The position numbers were made by a program, and so were the translations under genes. From the NCBI GenBank assembly GCA_038885755.1, contig JAVZZH010000002.1, forward strand, positions 1 through 64,000: a stretch of DNA of 64,000 bases. The letters run 5' to 3'. Positions 56,053-63,344 of this stretch are shown in pieces. Source of the DNA: Candidatus Caldarchaeum sp. (lineage in GTDB: Archaea; Thermoproteota; Nitrososphaeria_A; Caldarchaeales; Caldarchaeaceae). Under the pieces are notes generated by a model, which was not told the origin of the DNA, did no database searches, and saw only the letters and a list, made by a program, of their open reading frames with translations. How positions within the stretch are numbered: position 1 is the stretch's first letter; every line of letters begins with the position of its first letter.

Positions 56053-57621
56053 ATGTTGCTGCTGAGAGAAGTCCCGCCTTCAGGCAGGGAAGTTCTCAGC
56101 AAGGAAGCCGTCGACTTCGTGGAGCAGCTTGTCCGAGCACACAGCCCAAGCCTTAACAATCTCATGCATCAGCGGAAAGAAGTCGCGGAAGCTCTCCGCA
56201 GCGGAGGAAAGCTGGACTTCCCAGCCGAGACAGCGGACGTTCGCAGGTCAAGCTGGAGAGTTGCGGAAATACCTCAGGACCTCGAAGTCAGGCATGTTGA
56301 GATAACGGGGCCGGTTGACAGGAAGATGATGATCAACGCCTTAAACTCGGGGGCCGACGTCTACATGGCTGACTTCGAGGACTCGTTTTCACCCGTATGG
56401 GAGGCTACTGTGCAGGGCCAGCTAAACCTGATGGACGCGGTGCGGAGAACGATCGAATACAGGGGCCCTGACGGAAAACGCTACGAGCTGGCGGAAAAAA
56501 CAGCAACCCTCGTGGTCAGACCGCGCGGGCTACACATGCTTGAGAAAAACGTGAGCGTGGACGGGTCATCGATTCCGGCTGCTCTGTTCGACTTCGGAAT
56601 ATACCTTTTCCACAACGCCGAGGAGCTGGTTAGAAGAGGCTCAGGCCCCTACTTCTACCTCCCCAAGCTGGAGAGCTACCTCGAGGCAAGATGGTGGGCT
56701 CAGGTGTTCAGGGACGCCGAGAAAGCTCTAAACCTGAGCCACGGAACGATAAAGTGCAGTGTTTTGATAGAGACTATCACAGCGGCTTTTCAGATGGACG
56801 AGATTCTGTACGAGCTTCGGGACTACGCCACGGCGCTCAACCTCGGGCGGTGGGATTACATCTTCAGCTTCATCAAACGCCTTGGACACGACCCGCGGTA
56901 CGTCATGCCAGACCGAAGCCTTCTCACGATGGACAAGCATTTCCTCAAGTCGGCCGCGCTGCTACTTGTTCAGACATGCCATCGGAGGAGAGCCTACGCC
57001 ATAGGAGGGATGGCTGCGCAAGTACCCATACGTGGAAACCCTGAGGCCCAGCAGAAGGCTTTCGACAAGGTTAAGGAGGATAAGCTTCGAGAGATTTCGC
57101 AAGGGTTCGACGGAGCTTGGGCGGCTCATCCAGACCTAGTCCCGCTCGTCAAACGACTCTTCGTCGAAAACGTAAAGGGCCCCAACCAGCTCAACATCAG
57201 GCACGAGGGCCTCGTCATAACTGCCGACGACCTTCTCCAAATCCCTTCGGGCGAGAGGACGGCTGAAGGCATGAGGGCGAACATGGAGGTGGGGCTCCGC
57301 TACCTCGAATCATGGCTGCGTGGAAACGGCTGCGTCGCGATCAACTTCCTGATGGAGGACGCTGCAACTTTCGAAATAGCTCGAGCGATCATCTGGCAGT
57401 GGGTCAAGCACGGCGCCAAGCTCTCCGACGGCCGTGTCGTCACAGCCGAGGTTTTCGAGGAGGAGCTGTCGAAGGTGTTGACGAAGCTGAGGAACGAGAT
57501 GGGAGAGGAGAAATACAGGACGTCGAGATACGGCCTCGCAGCCGACATCCTGCGGCAGACAGTTCTAGCCAGCGAGTTCGTCGAGTTCACCCCGCCCATC
57601 GCCTACAGATACATCGACTAG
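56053..57621 (+). CDS. aceB: Malate synthase A
   Basis: EITGP, MADFED, RPRG, GPYFYLPK, LIET, GRWDYIFS, GGMAAQ and LMEDAAT. Confidence 0.96.
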   Translation: MLLLREVPPSGREVLSKEAVDFVEQLVRAHSPSLNNLMHQRKEVAEALRSGGKLDFPAETADVRRSSWRVAEIPQDLEVRHVEITGPVDRKMMINALNSGADVYMADFEDSFSPVWEATVQGQLNLMDAVRRTIEYRGPDGKRYELAEKTATLVVRPRGLHMLEKNVSVDGSSIPAALFDFGIYLFHNAEELVRRGSGPYFYLPKLESYLEARWWAQVFRDAEKALNLSHGTIKCSVLIETITAAFQMDEILYELRDYATALNLGRWDYIFSFIKRLGHDPRYVMPDRSLLTMDKHFLKSAALLLVQTCHRRRAYAIGGMAAQVPIRGNPEAQQKAFDKVKEDKLREISQGFDGAWAAHPDLVPLVKRLFVENVKGPNQLNIRHEGLVITADDLLQIPSGERTAEGMRANMEVGLRYLESWLRGNGCVAINFLMEDAATFEIARAIIWQWVKHGAKLSDGRVVTAEVFEEELSKVLTKLRNEMGEEKYRTSRYGLAADILRQTVLASEFVEFTPPIAYRYID

Positions 57622-57649
57622 GTTCCCATCCTGGCCGGCCAAAGCCTGC

Positions 57650-58834
57650 ATGCGGTTCTTCGCAACGACTTTCCACGGGCTTGAAGACGTAGCTGCTTCA
57701 GAGGTCTCTGGAATTGTGGGAGAAGAGGCGGAGGCAGATGTTTCGAAGGTGTTTTTCACAGGGTCGGCCGGGGACTGTGTCAAGGTTAATCTAGCTTCAC
57801 AGACCGTTAACAAGGTTTTCCTCCTCCTGCTGAAAGACCGGGCCGAGTCTCTGGAGAGTGTCGAAAGCCTTGCGGCCAGCGTCGACTACACTGACTTGAT
57901 CACGAGGGGGCAGAGCTTCGCGGTGGAGGCGGAGAGGGTCGGGTCCCATCCATTCACGAGCTTGGACATAGCGGCGGCGGTTGGGAGGGCTGTCATCGAA
58001 TCCTACCGGGCGGCTACGGGGTTCAGGCTTAGAGTTGACTTGAAGAACCCCGACGTCAAGCTTTACGTGATTCTGCGCGGCGATGAGCTGCTGCTGGGGC
58101 TTAACACGACGGGGGAGTCGCTTCACCGAAGGTTCTACCGCCGAGGAGCGCACAGAGCAGCCCTATCACCAACGGTGGCCAACGCAGTGGTCAGGATATC
58201 GGGCTGGAGGCCGGGGCGCACCCTCCTAGACCCCTTCTGCGGAAGCGGAACCATACCGCTGGAAGCAGCCGTCTACGGCCTCGACATATGCCCCGGAGCT
58301 AGGACCGGCCAGCTGGCTTTCCAAAAAATCTGCTTGTTCGACGCCGAGGAGGCTGAGAAGGTCAAGCAGGAGATGCTGCGGCGTGAGAAGAGAGGGGCTG
58401 TCGATGTTGTTGGGCTTGACATATCCAGTAAGGCTCTGGCTTTGGCGGAGGAGAGTAGGGCCGTGTTTGGATTCGACTGCGGAGTTAGGTTCGTCCGAGG
58501 CGATGTTTTCAAGCTCGACAGATACATAACCCAGCGGGTTGACACGGTCGTCTGCAACCCTCCGTTTGGAGTTAGGATGAAGGTCGAAGACCCGGAGAAA
58601 TTCTACACCGAAGCCTTCAAAGCTGTGATGAAGGCCTGCCCAAACGCATTCCTCACAGTCATCTGCAACAAGCCCTTCAAAATGCTAAGGGCTCTGGAAA
58701 ACTCCCTCTACAACCCCATCTCGCTGAAGAAAGTTCTACTGGGAGACCTAGCTGCTTACGTCTTCTCTTCAGCCAGCACGGGCACGAGCCTAGACTCCGT
58801 ATTCTCCGGTCGAAGGGTCTCGGAAAAGCTCTAG
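57650..58834 (+). CDS. trm14: THUMP-domain tRNA (guanine-N2) methyltransferase (Trm14-like)
   Basis: THUMP domain, TTGESLHRR, DPFCGSGTI and NPPFG. Confidence 0.85.
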   Translation: MRFFATTFHGLEDVAASEVSGIVGEEAEADVSKVFFTGSAGDCVKVNLASQTVNKVFLLLLKDRAESLESVESLAASVDYTDLITRGQSFAVEAERVGSHPFTSLDIAAAVGRAVIESYRAATGFRLRVDLKNPDVKLYVILRGDELLLGLNTTGESLHRRFYRRGAHRAALSPTVANAVVRISGWRPGRTLLDPFCGSGTIPLEAAVYGLDICPGARTGQLAFQKICLFDAEEAEKVKQEMLRREKRGAVDVVGLDISSKALALAEESRAVFGFDCGVRFVRGDVFKLDRYITQRVDTVVCNPPFGVRMKVEDPEKFYTEAFKAVMKACPNAFLTVICNKPFKMLRALENSLYNPISLKKVLLGDLAAYVFSSASTGTSLDSVFSGRRVSEKL

Positions 58835-59332
58835 CTCGGGGGGTGCGAAGGTGAAGACGAAGAACAGCAGCGCCGCAAAGGCTAGAGCTGCTGCGGGAGC
58901 GGGGTTGAACGGCTTGGCTCCGTGTGTCAGCGTGATGCGGTAGCTTATGGCTTGGCCTGCTGCAACCGACGCTATGAAAAGCCCGATGTCGTATGCGAGG
59001 TTGCTGCTGTGGAAAACAGCCTCGTAGGCGTAAAAACCTGCCACGATGATTGTTGGCATCGAGAATATGCCGACCGCCTTTCCGAGCAATAGGTTTGGAT
59101 ATGTTTTACGGATGCGGGCATATTGGTAGACGGTTAGGGCGAGAGCTGGGAAGAAAGGCAGCTTCAGATGTTCCCAGACGCTTTCGTTCACGGCGGAAAA
59201 CAGGGCTGCAACCATGTTTCCGCCTGAAAGCTCGTATGTGAAATGCAGGAGCGAGCCCGCGAATACGATGAAGAAGAAGCCTCCAACCTCGGTTTGCTTC
59301 AGAATCCTCTGGTGCTGGACCGTCTCCATCAA
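58790..59332 (-). CDS. Conserved membrane protein
   Basis: GSLLHFTYE and NESVWEHLKL; about 5 TM segments. Confidence 0.7.
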   Translation of the reverse strand: MMETVQHQRILKQTEVGGFFFIVFAGSLLHFTYELSGGNMVAALFSAVNESVWEHLKLPFFPALALTVYQYARIRKTYPNLLLGKAVGIFSMPTIIVAGFYAYEAVFHSSNLAYDIGLFIASVAAGQAISYRITLTHGAKPFNPAPAAALAFAALLFFVFTFAPPELELFRDPSTGEYGV

Positions 59333-59412
59333 AGAATTTTAGGGGTGGCCTAAAATATATACCTTGCCAGCATCTTGTAAACAACACATCCTAATAAAGC
59401 AGCAACAACTCC

Positions 59413-60003
59413 ATGCCTCGACGAGAGTTGCGTGAAGACCTGGCAGTCGACATACAGAGGGATGAGGAGGAGGTTCTGAAAGCTCTGTCCACGGCCTCCG
59501 AGGGAGAGGTGAGCTTCAACGGCATGCGGAGGGTGTTGGGAATGCATCAGGAGAAGCTTTCACGGATACTTAGGCGGCTTGAGAAGCATGGCCTCGTGAG
59601 CCGGACTGATACCGGGTACAGGCTCAGCGGGAAGGCTCTGAAGCTTGTTTCAAAAACCGGCGGGAACCGGCCGCACGTCGTCGTCGACACCTTGGTGGAG
59701 GACGTGGGGTTGTTGCTCGCGGGTGTTGCGGCTCTTAGGGGAAGATGGGTTGACGAGCTCCGCTGGCTGGGGTACAGCATCGAGGACGAAGCCCACGTGC
59801 TCCGCTGGATCTCACAGGACGGAGCACTCACCATAACGCTGAGGCTTAAGAACAGCCGGCTCGTGATCGAAAGCAACGCAAACGACCGGAGAGCCGTCCG
59901 CGCAGCCCTAGCCATCCTACGCAAAGCCTACGAACTTGCTCTTGTTGACGACGAAACACCGTTCAAAGCACTCCAAGCAAACCCCTTCAACATAGCTGCG
60001 TAG
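59413..60003 (+). CDS. Winged-helix DNA-binding protein
   Basis: SFNGMRRVLGMHQEKLSRILRRLEKHGLV..GYRLS. Confidence 0.8.
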   Translation: MPRRELREDLAVDIQRDEEEVLKALSTASEGEVSFNGMRRVLGMHQEKLSRILRRLEKHGLVSRTDTGYRLSGKALKLVSKTGGNRPHVVVDTLVEDVGLLLAGVAALRGRWVDELRWLGYSIEDEAHVLRWISQDGALTITLRLKNSRLVIESNANDRRAVRAALAILRKAYELALVDDETPFKALQANPFNIAA

Positions 60004-60068
60004 GCGTGACTAGCGGCACATTAACTCAGTCAATAAACACAACTCAACACCATGTTTGCTGAGCGAGA

Positions 60069-60632
60069 ATGACCACGATAGTTGGTTTGAAAGCTGTTGA
60101 CGGAGTAGTCCTGGCATCGGACAGAAGAGCCAGCAAGGGTTTCTTCATAGCTTCGAAGACGACGCAGAAGATCATGAAGGTTGACGACCGGCTGGCCGTA
60201 GCGGTTGCGGGCTTGTTGTCGGACGCCGTCTACCTAGTCAACGTCGTCAGGGCCGAGCGAAAGCTCATATCGCTGAGGCGTGGATACCCGCTCTCCGTAG
60301 CCGAGTCAAGCAAGCTCATAGCAAACCTGTTCTACAGCGGAATGAGGAGCTACATACCCTACTTCGCCGAGCTGATCGTCGCAGGAGTCGACGACGAAGG
60401 GCCCCACGTGTTCAGCAGCGACATGAGCGGGTCGATGGTTGCTGAGGAATTCGTCTCCTCCGGCTCCGGGTCGCCAGTAGCCTACGGCGTCTTGGAAAGC
60501 CTTTACAGCCCTAGCATAAACTTGGAGCAGGCACGGAACATAGCTGTGAAGGCTGTTGAGGCGGCGATGCAGCGAGATCCCGGCTCAGGCAACGGCGTCG
60601 ACGTCCTAGCTATTCCGGCTGGAGGTGTTTAG
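60069..60632 (+). CDS. psmB: Proteasome beta subunit without propeptide
   Basis: M-T1TIVG, D17RR, K33, GSGS and RDPGSG; in-frame TGA at 60060-60062. Confidence 0.93.
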   Translation: MTTIVGLKAVDGVVLASDRRASKGFFIASKTTQKIMKVDDRLAVAVAGLLSDAVYLVNVVRAERKLISLRRGYPLSVAESSKLIANLFYSGMRSYIPYFAELIVAGVDDEGPHVFSSDMSGSMVAEEFVSSGSGSPVAYGVLESLYSPSINLEQARNIAVKAVEAAMQRDPGSGNGVDVLAIPAGGV

Positions 60633-60635
60633 GAG

Positions 60636-61310
60636 ATGACGGTAGACCCTTCAAGGTTTCAGATGTTCTACGGCCCTGAGGGGAGGATGACTCTCGTCGA
60701 CAGAGCTCTCGAGGCGGTCATGCGTGGAGCGATAAGCCTAGGTCTTCGGTTCCCGTCTTTCGCAGTCGTGGCAAGCATGGTGAAGCCGACGAGGAAGTTG
60801 ATGAAGCCCAGCGACAAAGTCTTCACGATCGACGACCACGTGGGGATTACGGGATCAGGCTACATCAGCGACCTTTACAGGGTGGTCGACCACATGCGTG
60901 TCGAGGCCCAGCGGCACAGGCTTTTGTTCGACGCTCCGATGGACGTCGGATCCATCGTCGACTCGGTGAGCAGCTACTTCCACGGCTACACCCTCTACCC
61001 TGTAAGGCCTCAGGGAGTTGCTGTAATCATAGCGGGCGTCGACAAGCTCGGAGTCCAGCTCTACCAAGTCGACCCGAGCGGCACAGCCTTCAACGGCGAC
61101 GCCTTCGCAGTAGGCATGAACAGCGACAAAGCCCTAGAGATAATCGAGAACGAGTATAGGCCCGACATGAAGCTGGATGAAGCCATCAAGATGGTTGTCT
61201 CGGTCGTGGAGAGGACGGGCAACCCAGAGCCAGCCATACAGTACGGATACGTGAGCCTAGAAAACCCTGTTTTCACGAGAAGGAACATCAACAACCATTC
61301 AAACACGTAG
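60636..61310 (+). CDS. psmA: Divergent proteasome alpha subunit
   Basis: GPEGR..EAVMRG, KVFTIDDHVG..SG..SD, RVEAQ, RPQGV..IAGVD and YQVDPSG. Confidence 0.88.
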   Translation: MTVDPSRFQMFYGPEGRMTLVDRALEAVMRGAISLGLRFPSFAVVASMVKPTRKLMKPSDKVFTIDDHVGITGSGYISDLYRVVDHMRVEAQRHRLLFDAPMDVGSIVDSVSSYFHGYTLYPVRPQGVAVIIAGVDKLGVQLYQVDPSGTAFNGDAFAVGMNSDKALEIIENEYRPDMKLDEAIKMVVSVVERTGNPEPAIQYGYVSLENPVFTRRNINNHSNT

Positions 61311-61518
61311 GCAGAGCAGCCCGAGAGGAGCAAGCGGAACAACGTCAACAACAACAGAGCCGTAATCGTTCATCAAACGCCTAATCCGCCGAAGTTCATC
61401 CTGCCTAACCTCAGCCACACACTCAGCGGGAACTCTGAAGTGCGGCGAAATGTAAAGAACAGGCTACCGGGCAGTCTCCCTAACGAGGGTTTTGTTCCCT
61501 ATGGAGATGAATTTATTT

Positions 61519-61752
61519 TTAGGTGCTTACAACCAGCATGGTCAGCGTTGACCTCACTTTCTCAAGCCGGCGGATGCTCCACGAAACGATCTCCTTCAGC
61601 TTCTCCATCGAATCCGCCTCAACCTTGGCCACGATGTCGTAAACGCCGTAGACCACGTACGCCTCCTTGATGTAGGAGATCTTCTTGAGCTCGTTCACAA
61701 CCTCTTCCTCGGCGCCTATCTCGGTGTTGATTAGGACGAATGCAGACGGCAT
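61519..61752 (-). CDS. Stand-alone Lrp/AsnC ligand-binding (RAM) domain protein
   Basis: AFVLIN, VYGVYDIVAKVE and IRRLEKVRSTLT. Confidence 0.9.
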   Translation of the reverse strand: MPSAFVLINTEIGAEEEVVNELKKISYIKEAYVVYGVYDIVAKVEADSMEKLKEIVSWSIRRLEKVRSTLTMLVVST

Positions 61753-61803: not shown

Positions 61804-62925
61804 TCACCCGTAGATCTTTGTGAACAGCTTCAAGCCAGCCCTAGCTCCGAGGAACATGCCTGCGGCGTACATCCATCCCTCGGGCCTCAGCGTCGCGACA
61901 GAAGCCCAGAACCCCGAGACGTTGCATCCCACAGCTATCCAGACGGCTACGCCCATGAACAAGCCTGCGGCAAACCCCACGGCCATGTCGCCGGGCCTTC
62001 CACCACGGTAGCAGCCGAAGCCGCCAGACGTCGTCGACCCCAGCATCGCCCCCACTACGAGGGCTATGACGAGCAGGAGAAGCGGGTCGTTGAACGGCTC
62101 CCTCAAACCCCATCTGACGGCCCAAGCAACTTCCTCGACGTCCACCAACGGGGAGGCCGTCCAGAGAGCTAGCCTTGCAAGTGGAAGCTGGACGGAGAGC
62201 GACGAGTAGAAAGCGAACTGGGCGATGAAGACAGCCGCCATCACCAGCCCTCCCAGCCAAGTAGGCCACCAGCCTGTCTTGAAGACGAGCCTCAACCCTG
62301 ACACGAATGTGCTGAAGCCGGGCAGGTTGAGACTTCCTCCACGCCGCTGGAGAATGGCTAGGAGAATAGCTATCAGGCTGATGTTTAGCGCCAGTCCTCC
62401 TAAAGGTCCGATGGCTTGGTATAAGCTGAAGCCCCTGCCCAAGTCTACGAAAGGCTCGACAAAACCCCACACGAAGAAAGCGCCCACGAAGTTGCCGACG
62501 AGGATCCCGGCGAGTGATGACAAAGCCTTCGCCTGCCCAGCTCCGAACCTATACATAACCCCGGTTATGCATCCTCCAGCAAACGGCATGGCGAGGCCAA
62601 AAAGAAACGAGCCGACCAAGATGTGGGGCCCCACCGGTATTGCAGGCGGTGCGTTGAGCCCATGCAACAAGATGAAGGCAGAGCCGATGCTGGCTACAGC
62701 CATGCTCAACAGTATAGCCGTCATTATCTGGGAGTCGCCGTAGAAGGCTGTTGCGAAGCATATCCTAGACTTGTAGATGGCGTAGCCGTACATGAGGCCG
62801 AAGACTATGAAGAACGCATGCTGCACATATCCGGCGGCAAGGTAGACGGCGACGGAGGCCAGAACAACTACGAGAATCGCCGAGGATGTTAGCTTCTGTT
62901 CAACGCCGGCCTGCAGGGCCTTCAT
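61804..62925 (-). CDS. YeeE/YedE family (thio)sulfur transporter
   Basis: Multi-TM protein with three conserved Cys motifs: SRICFA, AGGCITG and VGCNV. Confidence 0.88.
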   Translation of the reverse strand: MKALQAGVEQKLTSSAILVVVLASVAVYLAAGYVQHAFFIVFGLMYGYAIYKSRICFATAFYGDSQIMTAILLSMAVASIGSAFILLHGLNAPPAIPVGPHILVGSFLFGLAMPFAGGCITGVMYRFGAGQAKALSSLAGILVGNFVGAFFVWGFVEPFVDLGRGFSLYQAIGPLGGLALNISLIAILLAILQRRGGSLNLPGFSTFVSGLRLVFKTGWWPTWLGGLVMAAVFIAQFAFYSSLSVQLPLARLALWTASPLVDVEEVAWAVRWGLREPFNDPLLLLVIALVVGAMLGSTTSGGFGCYRGGRPGDMAVGFAAGLFMGVAVWIAVGCNVSGFWASVATLRPEGWMYAAGMFLGARAGLKLFTKIYG

Positions 62926-63344
62926 GACCGGCCACCCGCCTCAACGACCACTTTTCCACGCATCCATGGATGGGGGGAGCATCGGTAGCCGTACCTACCC
63001 GGCTGCGTGAAGGTGTAGGCGAAGCTCTCGCCGGTCTCGAGGAGCTTGGACTTGAAAGTCTTGATGCAGCCCTGCTCGTTGTACATGCATGGCTCGTGGG
63101 TTACGTCGTGGACTGTGATGTCCTCGTTGACCCAGACGACTGTGTTGTTCACCCCCAACACCACCCTTACCGTGGGAGGGTCGTAGGTTGTTGAGGCATC
63201 CTCACGGTAGGAGCCCAGCCTTATGAACACCGTCGTTGAGCCCGGCTCGCCGCGATTCTCTCCGCCAAGCCCGTACAAAAACGTGTAGAACAACAGAGCC
63301 GAGGCAGCCACGGCGACGACAGCCAAAAAAGTCTTCATGAACAA
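62922..63344 (-). CDS. Membrane-anchored cupredoxin (plastocyanin/azurin-like)
   Basis: Signal/TM segment, WVNED..HDV, and YRCSPHPWMRG type-1 copper ligands. Confidence 0.9.
   Translation of the reverse strand: MFMKTFLAVVAVAASALLFYTFLYGLGGENRGEPGSTTVFIRLGSYREDASTTYDPPTVRVVLGVNNTVVWVNEDITVHDVTHEPCMYNEQGCIKTFKSKLLETGESFAYTFTQPGRYGYRCSPHPWMRGKVVVEAGGRS

Follow-up and report, generated by a model that had tools for sequence, protein, structure and literature searches.

The canonical archaeal 20S proteasome (genes psmA and psmB), solved for Thermoplasma, Archaeoglobus and Methanocaldococcus, is the reference model for how 20S particles assemble, mature and open. Its β-subunits are synthesised with a propeptide, which is cleaved off autocatalytically between Gly-1 and Thr1. 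Its α-subunits carry a gate cluster made up of Tyr8-Asp9 of the YDR motif, Pro17 and Tyr26 of the VEYA motif, in which the Tyr-Asp pair and Tyr26 stabilise the activator-opened gate, and a pocket lysine (the Lys66 equivalent) that receives the C-termini of activators. Bacterial β-subunits carry long propeptides that are needed for assembly, and HslV has no α partner and forms hexameric rings. Condition-dependent variants are on record for Haloferax (α1/α2), Pyrococcus (β1/β2), Sulfolobus (β1/β2) and the eukaryotic alternative cores, and Rhodococcus erythropolis has two β–α sets, with two α and two β genes in one organism (PMC13022661). The survey of Fuchs, Alva and Lupas (2021) covers Anbu, BPH, connectase and 22 new families of proteasome homologs, with archaeal α- and β-type sequences placed in the central proteasome clusters (PMC8665760, Results section). 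Here, an adjacent pair of proteasome-type genes, termed β′ and α′, and an upstream gene for a winged helix-turn-helix (wHTH) protein are analysed in a 64-kb stretch of Candidatus Caldarchaeum DNA (contig JAVZZH010000002.1, positions 1–64,000; the whole of this stretch is referred to as the window). The three genes, co-oriented on the + strand, probably form one conserved unit encoding a second, separately regulated 20S-type core particle.

The assembly (1.33 Mb in 10 contigs, 86.5% complete) contains five PF00227 genes: the α′/β′ pair and, at three other loci, one canonical α gene and two canonical β genes. The pair is thus not the genome's only set of α and β genes, and is additional to an ordinary proteasome, as a preliminary description of this DNA had proposed. 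The β′ gene (60069–60632; 187 amino acids (aa), starting MTTIVG; stop TAG at 60630–60632) and the ATG of the α′ gene (60636–61310; 224 aa, proteasome α-type with a derived N-terminal region) stand 3 nucleotides (nt) apart in the raw sequence, the distance given in that description. The span it assigned to the pair, 59413–61310, does hold both genes, and its first position proved to be the start of the wHTH gene (59413–60003; 196 aa) rather than of β′. A Shine-Dalgarno-like GGAGGTG on the + strand (60621–60627), lying within the last β′ codons and 9–15 nt before the α′ ATG, suggests that translation of α′ may be coupled to that of β′.

Related loci were collected by a pattern scan of one genome per species, which gave 501 stretches, 209 of them encoding an α′ relative; the best 80 of these 209 were kept, and 9 of the 80 are cut by a contig end, leaving 71 complete β′ genes. 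At 80 of 80 loci, from Caldarchaeum, archaeon HR01 and ammonia oxidisers of the Nitrososphaerales, β′ lies directly 5′ of α′, with the β′ stop and the α′ start separated by −8 to +6 nt at 76 of the 80. Orthologs of β′ are 87–93% identical within Caldarchaeum, 79% in archaeon HR01 and 66–72% in Nitrososphaerales; for α′ the corresponding values are 80–97%, 63% and approximately 45–52% in many Nitrososphaerales.

The β′ gene opens with ATG-ACC-ACG, encoding Met-Thr-Thr, and since an in-frame TGA at 60060–60062 lies 9 nt upstream of the ATG at 60069, no N-terminal extension can be encoded. This propeptide-less start, which had been noted for the single gene, turns out to be a trait of the family: the start codon immediately precedes Thr-Thr in 71/71 complete β′ genes (68 ATG, 3 GTG), 49 of which have no other in-frame ATG, GTG or TTG back to the upstream stop. 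Threonine is a residue accepted by methionine aminopeptidase. In alignment, Thr2 of β′ falls opposite the first residue of the mature chain 1j2q_H (A. fulgidus β), and residues T2, D18, K34, G48, S133, D170 and S173, which correspond to Thr1, Asp17, Lys33, Gly47, Ser129, Asp166 and Ser169 of the reference enzyme, are invariant in 70–71 of the 71 orthologs. The Thr1/Asp17/Lys33 equivalents, the GSGS serine and the RDxxSG motif, all listed in the preliminary description, are present.

Against PF00227, β′ scores 168.9 bits (E 1.2e-49; cut-off 22.4). Its best-matching NCBIfam is the archaeal β equivalog TIGR03634, matched over model positions 1–184 of 185 with 211.5 bits (E 7.6e-63), below the cut-off of 224. 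When this genome is compared with three ammonia oxidisers, β′ is 66–67% identical and so better conserved than any of the other four paralogs (44–48% for the canonical β-subunits and 48–49% for the canonical α); the genome's own active canonical β is 43% identical to β′. These values point to strong constraint on β′, and the invariance of the catalytic positions, together with its standing as the most conserved paralog, fits an active enzyme. By tblastn, the β′ gene is split between reading frames at two loci (L028, L076) and the α gene at one (L133); pseudogenes, or faulty assembly of these metagenome-derived genomes, may be the cause.

The α′ protein scores 136.8 bits against PF00227 (E 8.8e-40; cut-off 22.4) and falls below the cut-offs of its best-matching NCBIfam families, the archaeal α models TIGR03633 (153.9 bits; cut-off 287.35) and NF003075 (163.4 bits; cut-off 219). 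It is 38% identical to the genome's canonical α and matches solved α-subunits from its residue 10–11 onward; full-length alignments of α′ and β′ to solved archaeal 20S α and β chains give best E-values of 2.5e-34 (9s34_H) and 5.2e-41 (6he5_1), respectively. Compared with the canonical α of the same genome and with the solved α-subunits, α′ lacks the Tyr-Asp of YDR and has Arg in place of the VEYA Tyr, and it retains the Arg of the YDR position together with the Pro and the DKVF lysine. These losses and retentions, read earlier from the one sequence, recur in the alignment and in the orthologs at 80 loci: the VEYA Tyr position is Ser in 71/80 and Arg in 9/80, and both the Pro and the pocket Lys (K61, aligning with the canonical Lys) are present in 80/80. 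A loop before VRPQ is one residue shorter than at the canonical GGVRP place, and VRPQ itself is invariant (80/80). The tail preceding the conserved Arg is 6 residues long in the Caldarchaeum α′ studied here and 6–7 residues across Caldarchaeum and HR01; in ammonia oxidisers it reaches 8–19 residues and is rich in Gly, Ala and Ser. The term ‘gate-less’, applied to α′ in the preliminary description, is therefore an overstatement and does not suit the family.

A second group of loci bears on how these changes arose. In family f11, the order wHTH, β′ (with Thr-Thr right after the start) and α holds at 9 of the 9 loci examined (L129–L136 and L114), and the f11 α keeps VEYA at all eight readable loci, the ninth being the frame-split L133. 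The N-terminus of f11 α has YDR in three cases, YER, YSR or YGR in three and neither in two, and in the representatives P0275 and P0278 the VEYA position is occupied by Phe or Tyr and YDR is missing. This graded series looks like a stepwise loss of the gate cluster. Because f11 α keeps VEYA and in some cases YDR, the loss of both motifs in Caldarchaeum and the ammonia oxidisers is secondary.

The canonical subunits of the genome are of ordinary type. The canonical α carries YDR and VEYA and adjoins exosome/SBDS-type genes, and the active canonical β has a leader whose last residue, Gly, precedes Thr-Thr-Thr. In the second canonical β (at ~218.5 kb of contig G000:C1; locus L002, 1477–2082) Thr1 is replaced by Ala, the leader closing with Pro-Gly and being followed by Ala-Thr-Thr or Ala-Val-Gly in all six genomes compared (also L107, L109, L110, L111 and L103), which suggests that the canonical particle probably combines inactive and active β-subunits. 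In this genome, which is 86.5% complete, no PAN-type ATPase scored above the cut-off of TIGR01242; this is not proof of absence. Two Cdc48-like double-AAA proteins of 723 and 726 aa, ending in AYIG and MMIG, were found; Cdc48-like ATPase matches lie at G000:C1:268639-270222 (L125) and G000:C7:5604-7238 (L126).

The distribution of the unit was determined in a phylum sample of 401 genomes, each at least 85% complete, with thresholds of E ≤ 1e-45 for α′ and E ≤ 1e-55 for β′; one α′/β′ genome of the sample (G421) is flagged as unpublished. α′ was found in 20 genomes and β′ in 35, with all 20 α′ genomes contained within the 35, and the remaining 15 β′ genomes belong to family f11, where the α partner is more divergent. 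By family, β′ is present in 9/12 genomes of f1, 5/64 of f5, 18/23 of f11 and 2/57 of the others. Within the window's class, α′ occurs in 11 of 76 genomes and in 2 of 15 genera.

A careful phylogenetic tree of 54 rows covers six genomes that have all five paralogs and 12 further pairs. Each paralog group forms one clade containing all six genomes, with supports of 100/98 for β′, 100/95 for α′ with f11 α, 98/91 for canonical α, 94/77 for active β and 100/99 for the Ala1 β. α′ and β′ stand in clades of their own, apart from the canonical orthologs. Because every paralog group holds all six genomes, the duplications predate the split of the six lineages, and the present patchiness needs losses or transfers; the unit is ancient, and later disappeared from many lineages or moved between them. 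In a quick, broad tree of α sequences, the clade of α′ and f11-type α joined three representatives with eukaryotic α2-like N-termini, a grouping that is possibly a long-branch effect. One protein considered as a β–α fusion, P0276 (495 aa), was rejected, being a tandem duplicate of a eukaryote-like α. In databases β′ is annotated as ‘proteasome subunit beta’ and α′ often as ‘hypothetical protein’, labels by which annotation pipelines hide the paralogy.

The third gene of the unit encodes a protein with a MarR-like winged helix (residues ~13–84) and a conserved C-terminal domain (residues ~85–180) with the motif GRW..LRWLG. It matches the Pfam families MarR_2 (28.6 bits; cut-off 27) and MarR (26.7 bits; cut-off 24.6), and MarR_2 is matched by all 28 aligned members. 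An AlphaFold2 model computed with the 28-row alignment has a predicted local distance difference test score (pLDDT) of 84.9, the single-sequence model being poor (pLDDT 55.7). In a VIA-align comparison with the MarR chain 7wze_A, covering residues 7–84 only, the Z-score was 13.3 and the root-mean-square deviation (rmsd) 1.0 over 71 residues; Foldseek searches with the AlphaFold2 model returned only matches driven by the winged helix (TM ~0.3), and the ESM Atlas gave no usable match for the protein. Searches of the C-terminal domain against Pfam (28 members) and by profile against the PDB found no family, the winged helix alone being matched; residues 85–196 are modelled as a β-α-β4-α domain. 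MarR proteins dimerise through N- and C-terminal helices flanking the wHTH. A complex prediction of residues 85–196 against α′ and β′ gave a score of 0.00 and a mark of 0.32, with controls not run, and is neutral on binding.

A wHTH homolog is encoded upstream and on the same strand at 44 of the 61 loci with at least 1,500 nt of room, at distances of 59 to 3,657 nt. Where no copy adjoins the pair, the gene was found at another place in the genome in four of five cases; the fifth genome is a 1.0-Mb partial assembly. Among 41 close relatives, the full-length protein (E ≤ 1e-60) occurs in 12, the same 12 that have α′ (in one of them as a fragment at a contig end), and in none of the other 29.

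Between the wHTH stop and the β′ start lies an inverted repeat, GTGAC-N17-GTCA (core TGAC-N18-GTCA; 60006–60032, + strand), which is the sole match to this pattern in the window. At 71 of 72 loci GTGAC-N13-19-GTC[AG] occurs 56–79 nt before the β′ start, against 40 of 5,871 background windows of 120 nt. TGAC and GTC[AG] stand 18 nt apart in 61 of 62 distinct sequences, with variable spacer letters; at the f11 loci the repeat is exact in 6/9 and one letter off in 3/9. Directly after the proximal half-site comes an AT-rich box, AATAAACA (60032–60039, + strand), a putative TATA box by position only, and related loci have an AT-rich heptamer in the same place (ATTAAT., ACTAATA, CTAAAC., ATTTAC.). 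A reading of the repeat as a hairpin was rejected, because the arms can pair at their fifth position in only 30 of 62 distinct sequences and the spacer keeps its length but not its letters. The repeat resembles the operator of a dimeric winged-helix protein abutting a TATA/transcription factor B recognition element (BRE) region, and is where the wHTH dimer is predicted to bind, so as to repress or activate the promoter. With synteny, co-occurrence and the operator-like repeat in agreement, the link of the wHTH gene to the pair is stronger than the preliminary description had proposed, and the gene belongs to the α′/β′ unit.

Metatranscriptome contigs of a relative (90–97% identity; two runs of one study) fall on all three genes, one spanning the β′–α′ junction (60318–60672) and two spanning the end of the wHTH gene and the start of β′ (59967–60143). 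The contigs of runs X1 and X2 left 59300–59443 and 61316–61450 uncovered and run X3 gave no cover at all, and missing cover proves nothing. As contigs from an RNA library are no proof of transcription, these data give a weak hint of it, seen in a relative.

In the arrangement held here to be probable, a dimer of the MarR-like wHTH protein would bind the fixed-spacing inverted repeat at the β′–α′ promoter and set its expression, and β′ and α′ would share a single transcript, be translated in a coupled manner and join to form an α′7-β′7-β′7-α′7 particle. Removal of Met alone would expose the Thr nucleophile of β′ in the manner of HslV, with no autocatalytic maturation. Because α′ has lost the gate Tyr-Asp and Tyr and kept the pocket Lys, entry into the particle would probably be controlled differently in Caldarchaeum and the ammonia oxidisers. 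Assembly, activity and gating of the α′/β′ particle are predictions of this kind, drawn from sequence comparison. A bolder version, tentative and on present evidence doubtful, casts the unit as a stress-inducible, activator-independent proteasome, in which the C-terminal domain of the wHTH protein would sense a proteotoxic signal and release or activate the promoter, propeptide-less β′ would yield active particles at once with no maturation step, and an α′ ring free of gate-locking residues would admit unfolded or damaged proteins without an ATPase. Were this the case, ammonia-oxidising archaea and Caldarchaeum would have an on-demand second route of degradation, and the unit would be the first among archaeal proteasomes to have a transcription factor of its own and a mapped operator.

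Several observations weigh against a separate second core. The unit is dispensable, as its patchy presence in 2/15 genera of the class and in 5/64 f5 genomes indicates; the order of the three β groups in the tree is weakly supported (93/60); f11 α keeps VEYA (8/8) and in three cases YDR, so that altered gating does not extend to every version of the unit; and with pocket Lys and Pro kept in 80/80, α′ may dock the ATPases of the canonical particle. Subunit mixing is moreover reported for archaea with two or three α or β genes, which form mixed particles under changed conditions (PMC13022661), and the canonical set here already has two β types, one of them Ala1, so that mixing is a real alternative. 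Under it, α′ and β′ would be alternative subunits entering the canonical 20S particle, as mixed rings or as an α′ ring on a canonical β core, whenever the wHTH protein turns them on, and would alter the properties of that particle. The 43% and 38% identities of β′ and α′ to their canonical counterparts and the retained pocket Lys and Pro are compatible with this. A subunit replacing one ring, however, needs no dedicated partner for the other, whereas the pair is adjacent at every locus with reading frames that overlap or nearly touch, all α′ genomes are found among those with β′, and the two proteins have kept separate clades since before the six lineages split. Such strict co-inheritance of α′ with β′ argues against mixing, which is accordingly considered rather unlikely.

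The other alternatives carry less weight. The complex might not be a general protease, either because the β′ N-terminus is blocked or because it adopts another architecture, such as a β′ double ring with α′ as an accessory. In eukaryotes the propeptides shield Thr1 against N-acetylation, a modification that archaea also make at N-termini, so that a propeptide-less β′, its Thr amine exposed to modification from synthesis onwards, could be blocked in vivo, a further point against an active second core. The α′ loop is also changed, being one residue shorter where the canonical subunit has GGVRP, and proteasome homologs are known to take other architectures and activities (PMC8665760, Results section). 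Against this stand the near-complete invariance of the β′ catalytic positions (70–71/71), the stronger conservation of β′ than of the other four paralogs and the full-length alignment of both proteins with solved 20S subunits, which leave this explanation improbable. It is more improbable still that the wHTH gene is a mere neighbour, regulating other genes or itself, and that another factor binds the repeat. Absence of an upstream homolog at 17 of the 61 loci with room, the wide range of distances elsewhere, a C-terminal domain that matches no known family and the purely predicted nature of repeat binding would all allow it. Yet the full-length gene is present in exactly those 12 of 41 relatives that have α′, it is retained elsewhere in the genome in four of five non-adjacent cases and is adjacent at 9/9 f11 loci, and the two-fold symmetry and fixed spacing of the repeat are as expected for a dimeric winged-helix protein. 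A second, separately regulated core encoded by all three genes is therefore preferred.

The flanks of the unit (56053–58834 and 61804–63344) encode malate synthase, a THUMP-domain RNA methyltransferase, a YeeE/YedE-type sulphur transporter and a plastocyanin/azurin-like copper protein, which are unrelated housekeeping or metabolic genes. Convergent to α′, on the − strand (61519–61752), is a gene for a 77-aa stand-alone Lrp/AsnC ligand-binding domain protein, which also lies beside α′ in Caldarchaeum and HR01 loci (86–99% identity) and approximately 3 kb downstream in two Nitrosopumilaceae-labelled loci (38–46% identity). On the other side, a DUF6512 membrane-protein gene (58790–59332, − strand) is divergent from the wHTH gene, and between these two lies a second palindrome, TTTTAGG-N5-CCTAAAA (59337–59355), followed by TATATA. 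Five Caldarchaeum loci with the DUF6512 gene (L019, L020, L023, L024 and L025) contain a similar sequence, and the two without the gene (L018 and L021) do not.

The unit represents a strongly conserved natural exception to two rules derived from the archaeal reference particle, the β propeptide and the YDR/Pro/Tyr gate cluster of α. Among its carriers are ammonia-oxidising archaea, an abundant group with strains in culture, which makes directly testable several questions that it raises: whether a propeptide-less β assembles and stays active in vivo, whether two cores can coexist without mixing, and which signal calls for a second proteasome.

Set beside the described systems, α′ and β′ share with the canonical archaeal 20S particle the PF00227 fold family, full-length alignment, the catalytic set of β′ and, in α′, the N-terminal helix region, the Pro and the pocket Lys. 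They differ from it in their sub-equivalog scores, the missing β′ propeptide, the loss of the YDR Tyr-Asp and VEYA Tyr and the shortened loop before VRPQ in α′, and in genetic organisation, the α′ and β′ genes being adjacent to each other and accompanied by a regulator gene and an operator-like site, whereas the canonical genes of this genome lie at three loci. The resemblance to actinobacterial prcBA, raised in the preliminary description, is borne out in gene order (β then α, in one operon) and does not extend to the sequences, which are of archaeal type and lie far below the cut-offs of the bacterial models (β′ 75.2 bits against 191.9; α′ 17.8 against 139.05). With HslV, β′ has in common the Met-Thr start and a nucleophile that would be exposed by removal of Met alone, but it scores only 22.2–22.8 bits against HslV models with cut-offs of 137 and 157.75.

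The families surveyed in PMC8665760 are likewise extra N-terminal nucleophile (Ntn)-hydrolase paralogs of proteasome subunits, mostly without propeptides; unlike the present pair, they are, in the Results section of that source, distant single-gene homologs. That section describes no α/β-type pair of this kind, although the cluster map and supplements of the article could hold one, and a full-text search of the literature returned no description of the α′/β′ pair, of a natural propeptide-less archaeal β or of the regulator, any of which subscription papers or supplements could contain. Multiple archaeal α or β genes and propeptide-less proteasome homologs are already known; an archaeal-type α/β operon with a propeptide-less, active-type β, a derived α N-terminus and a putative dedicated regulator and operator was not found in print in the literature searched, and is apparently new. 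Like the alternative subunits of other archaea and of eukaryotes, α′ and β′ are extra paralogs of core-particle subunits. In the Haloferax, Pyrococcus and Sulfolobus cases, however, one alternative subunit of one ring type is encoded at a locus of its own, whereas here a whole α and β operon is found together with its putative regulator.

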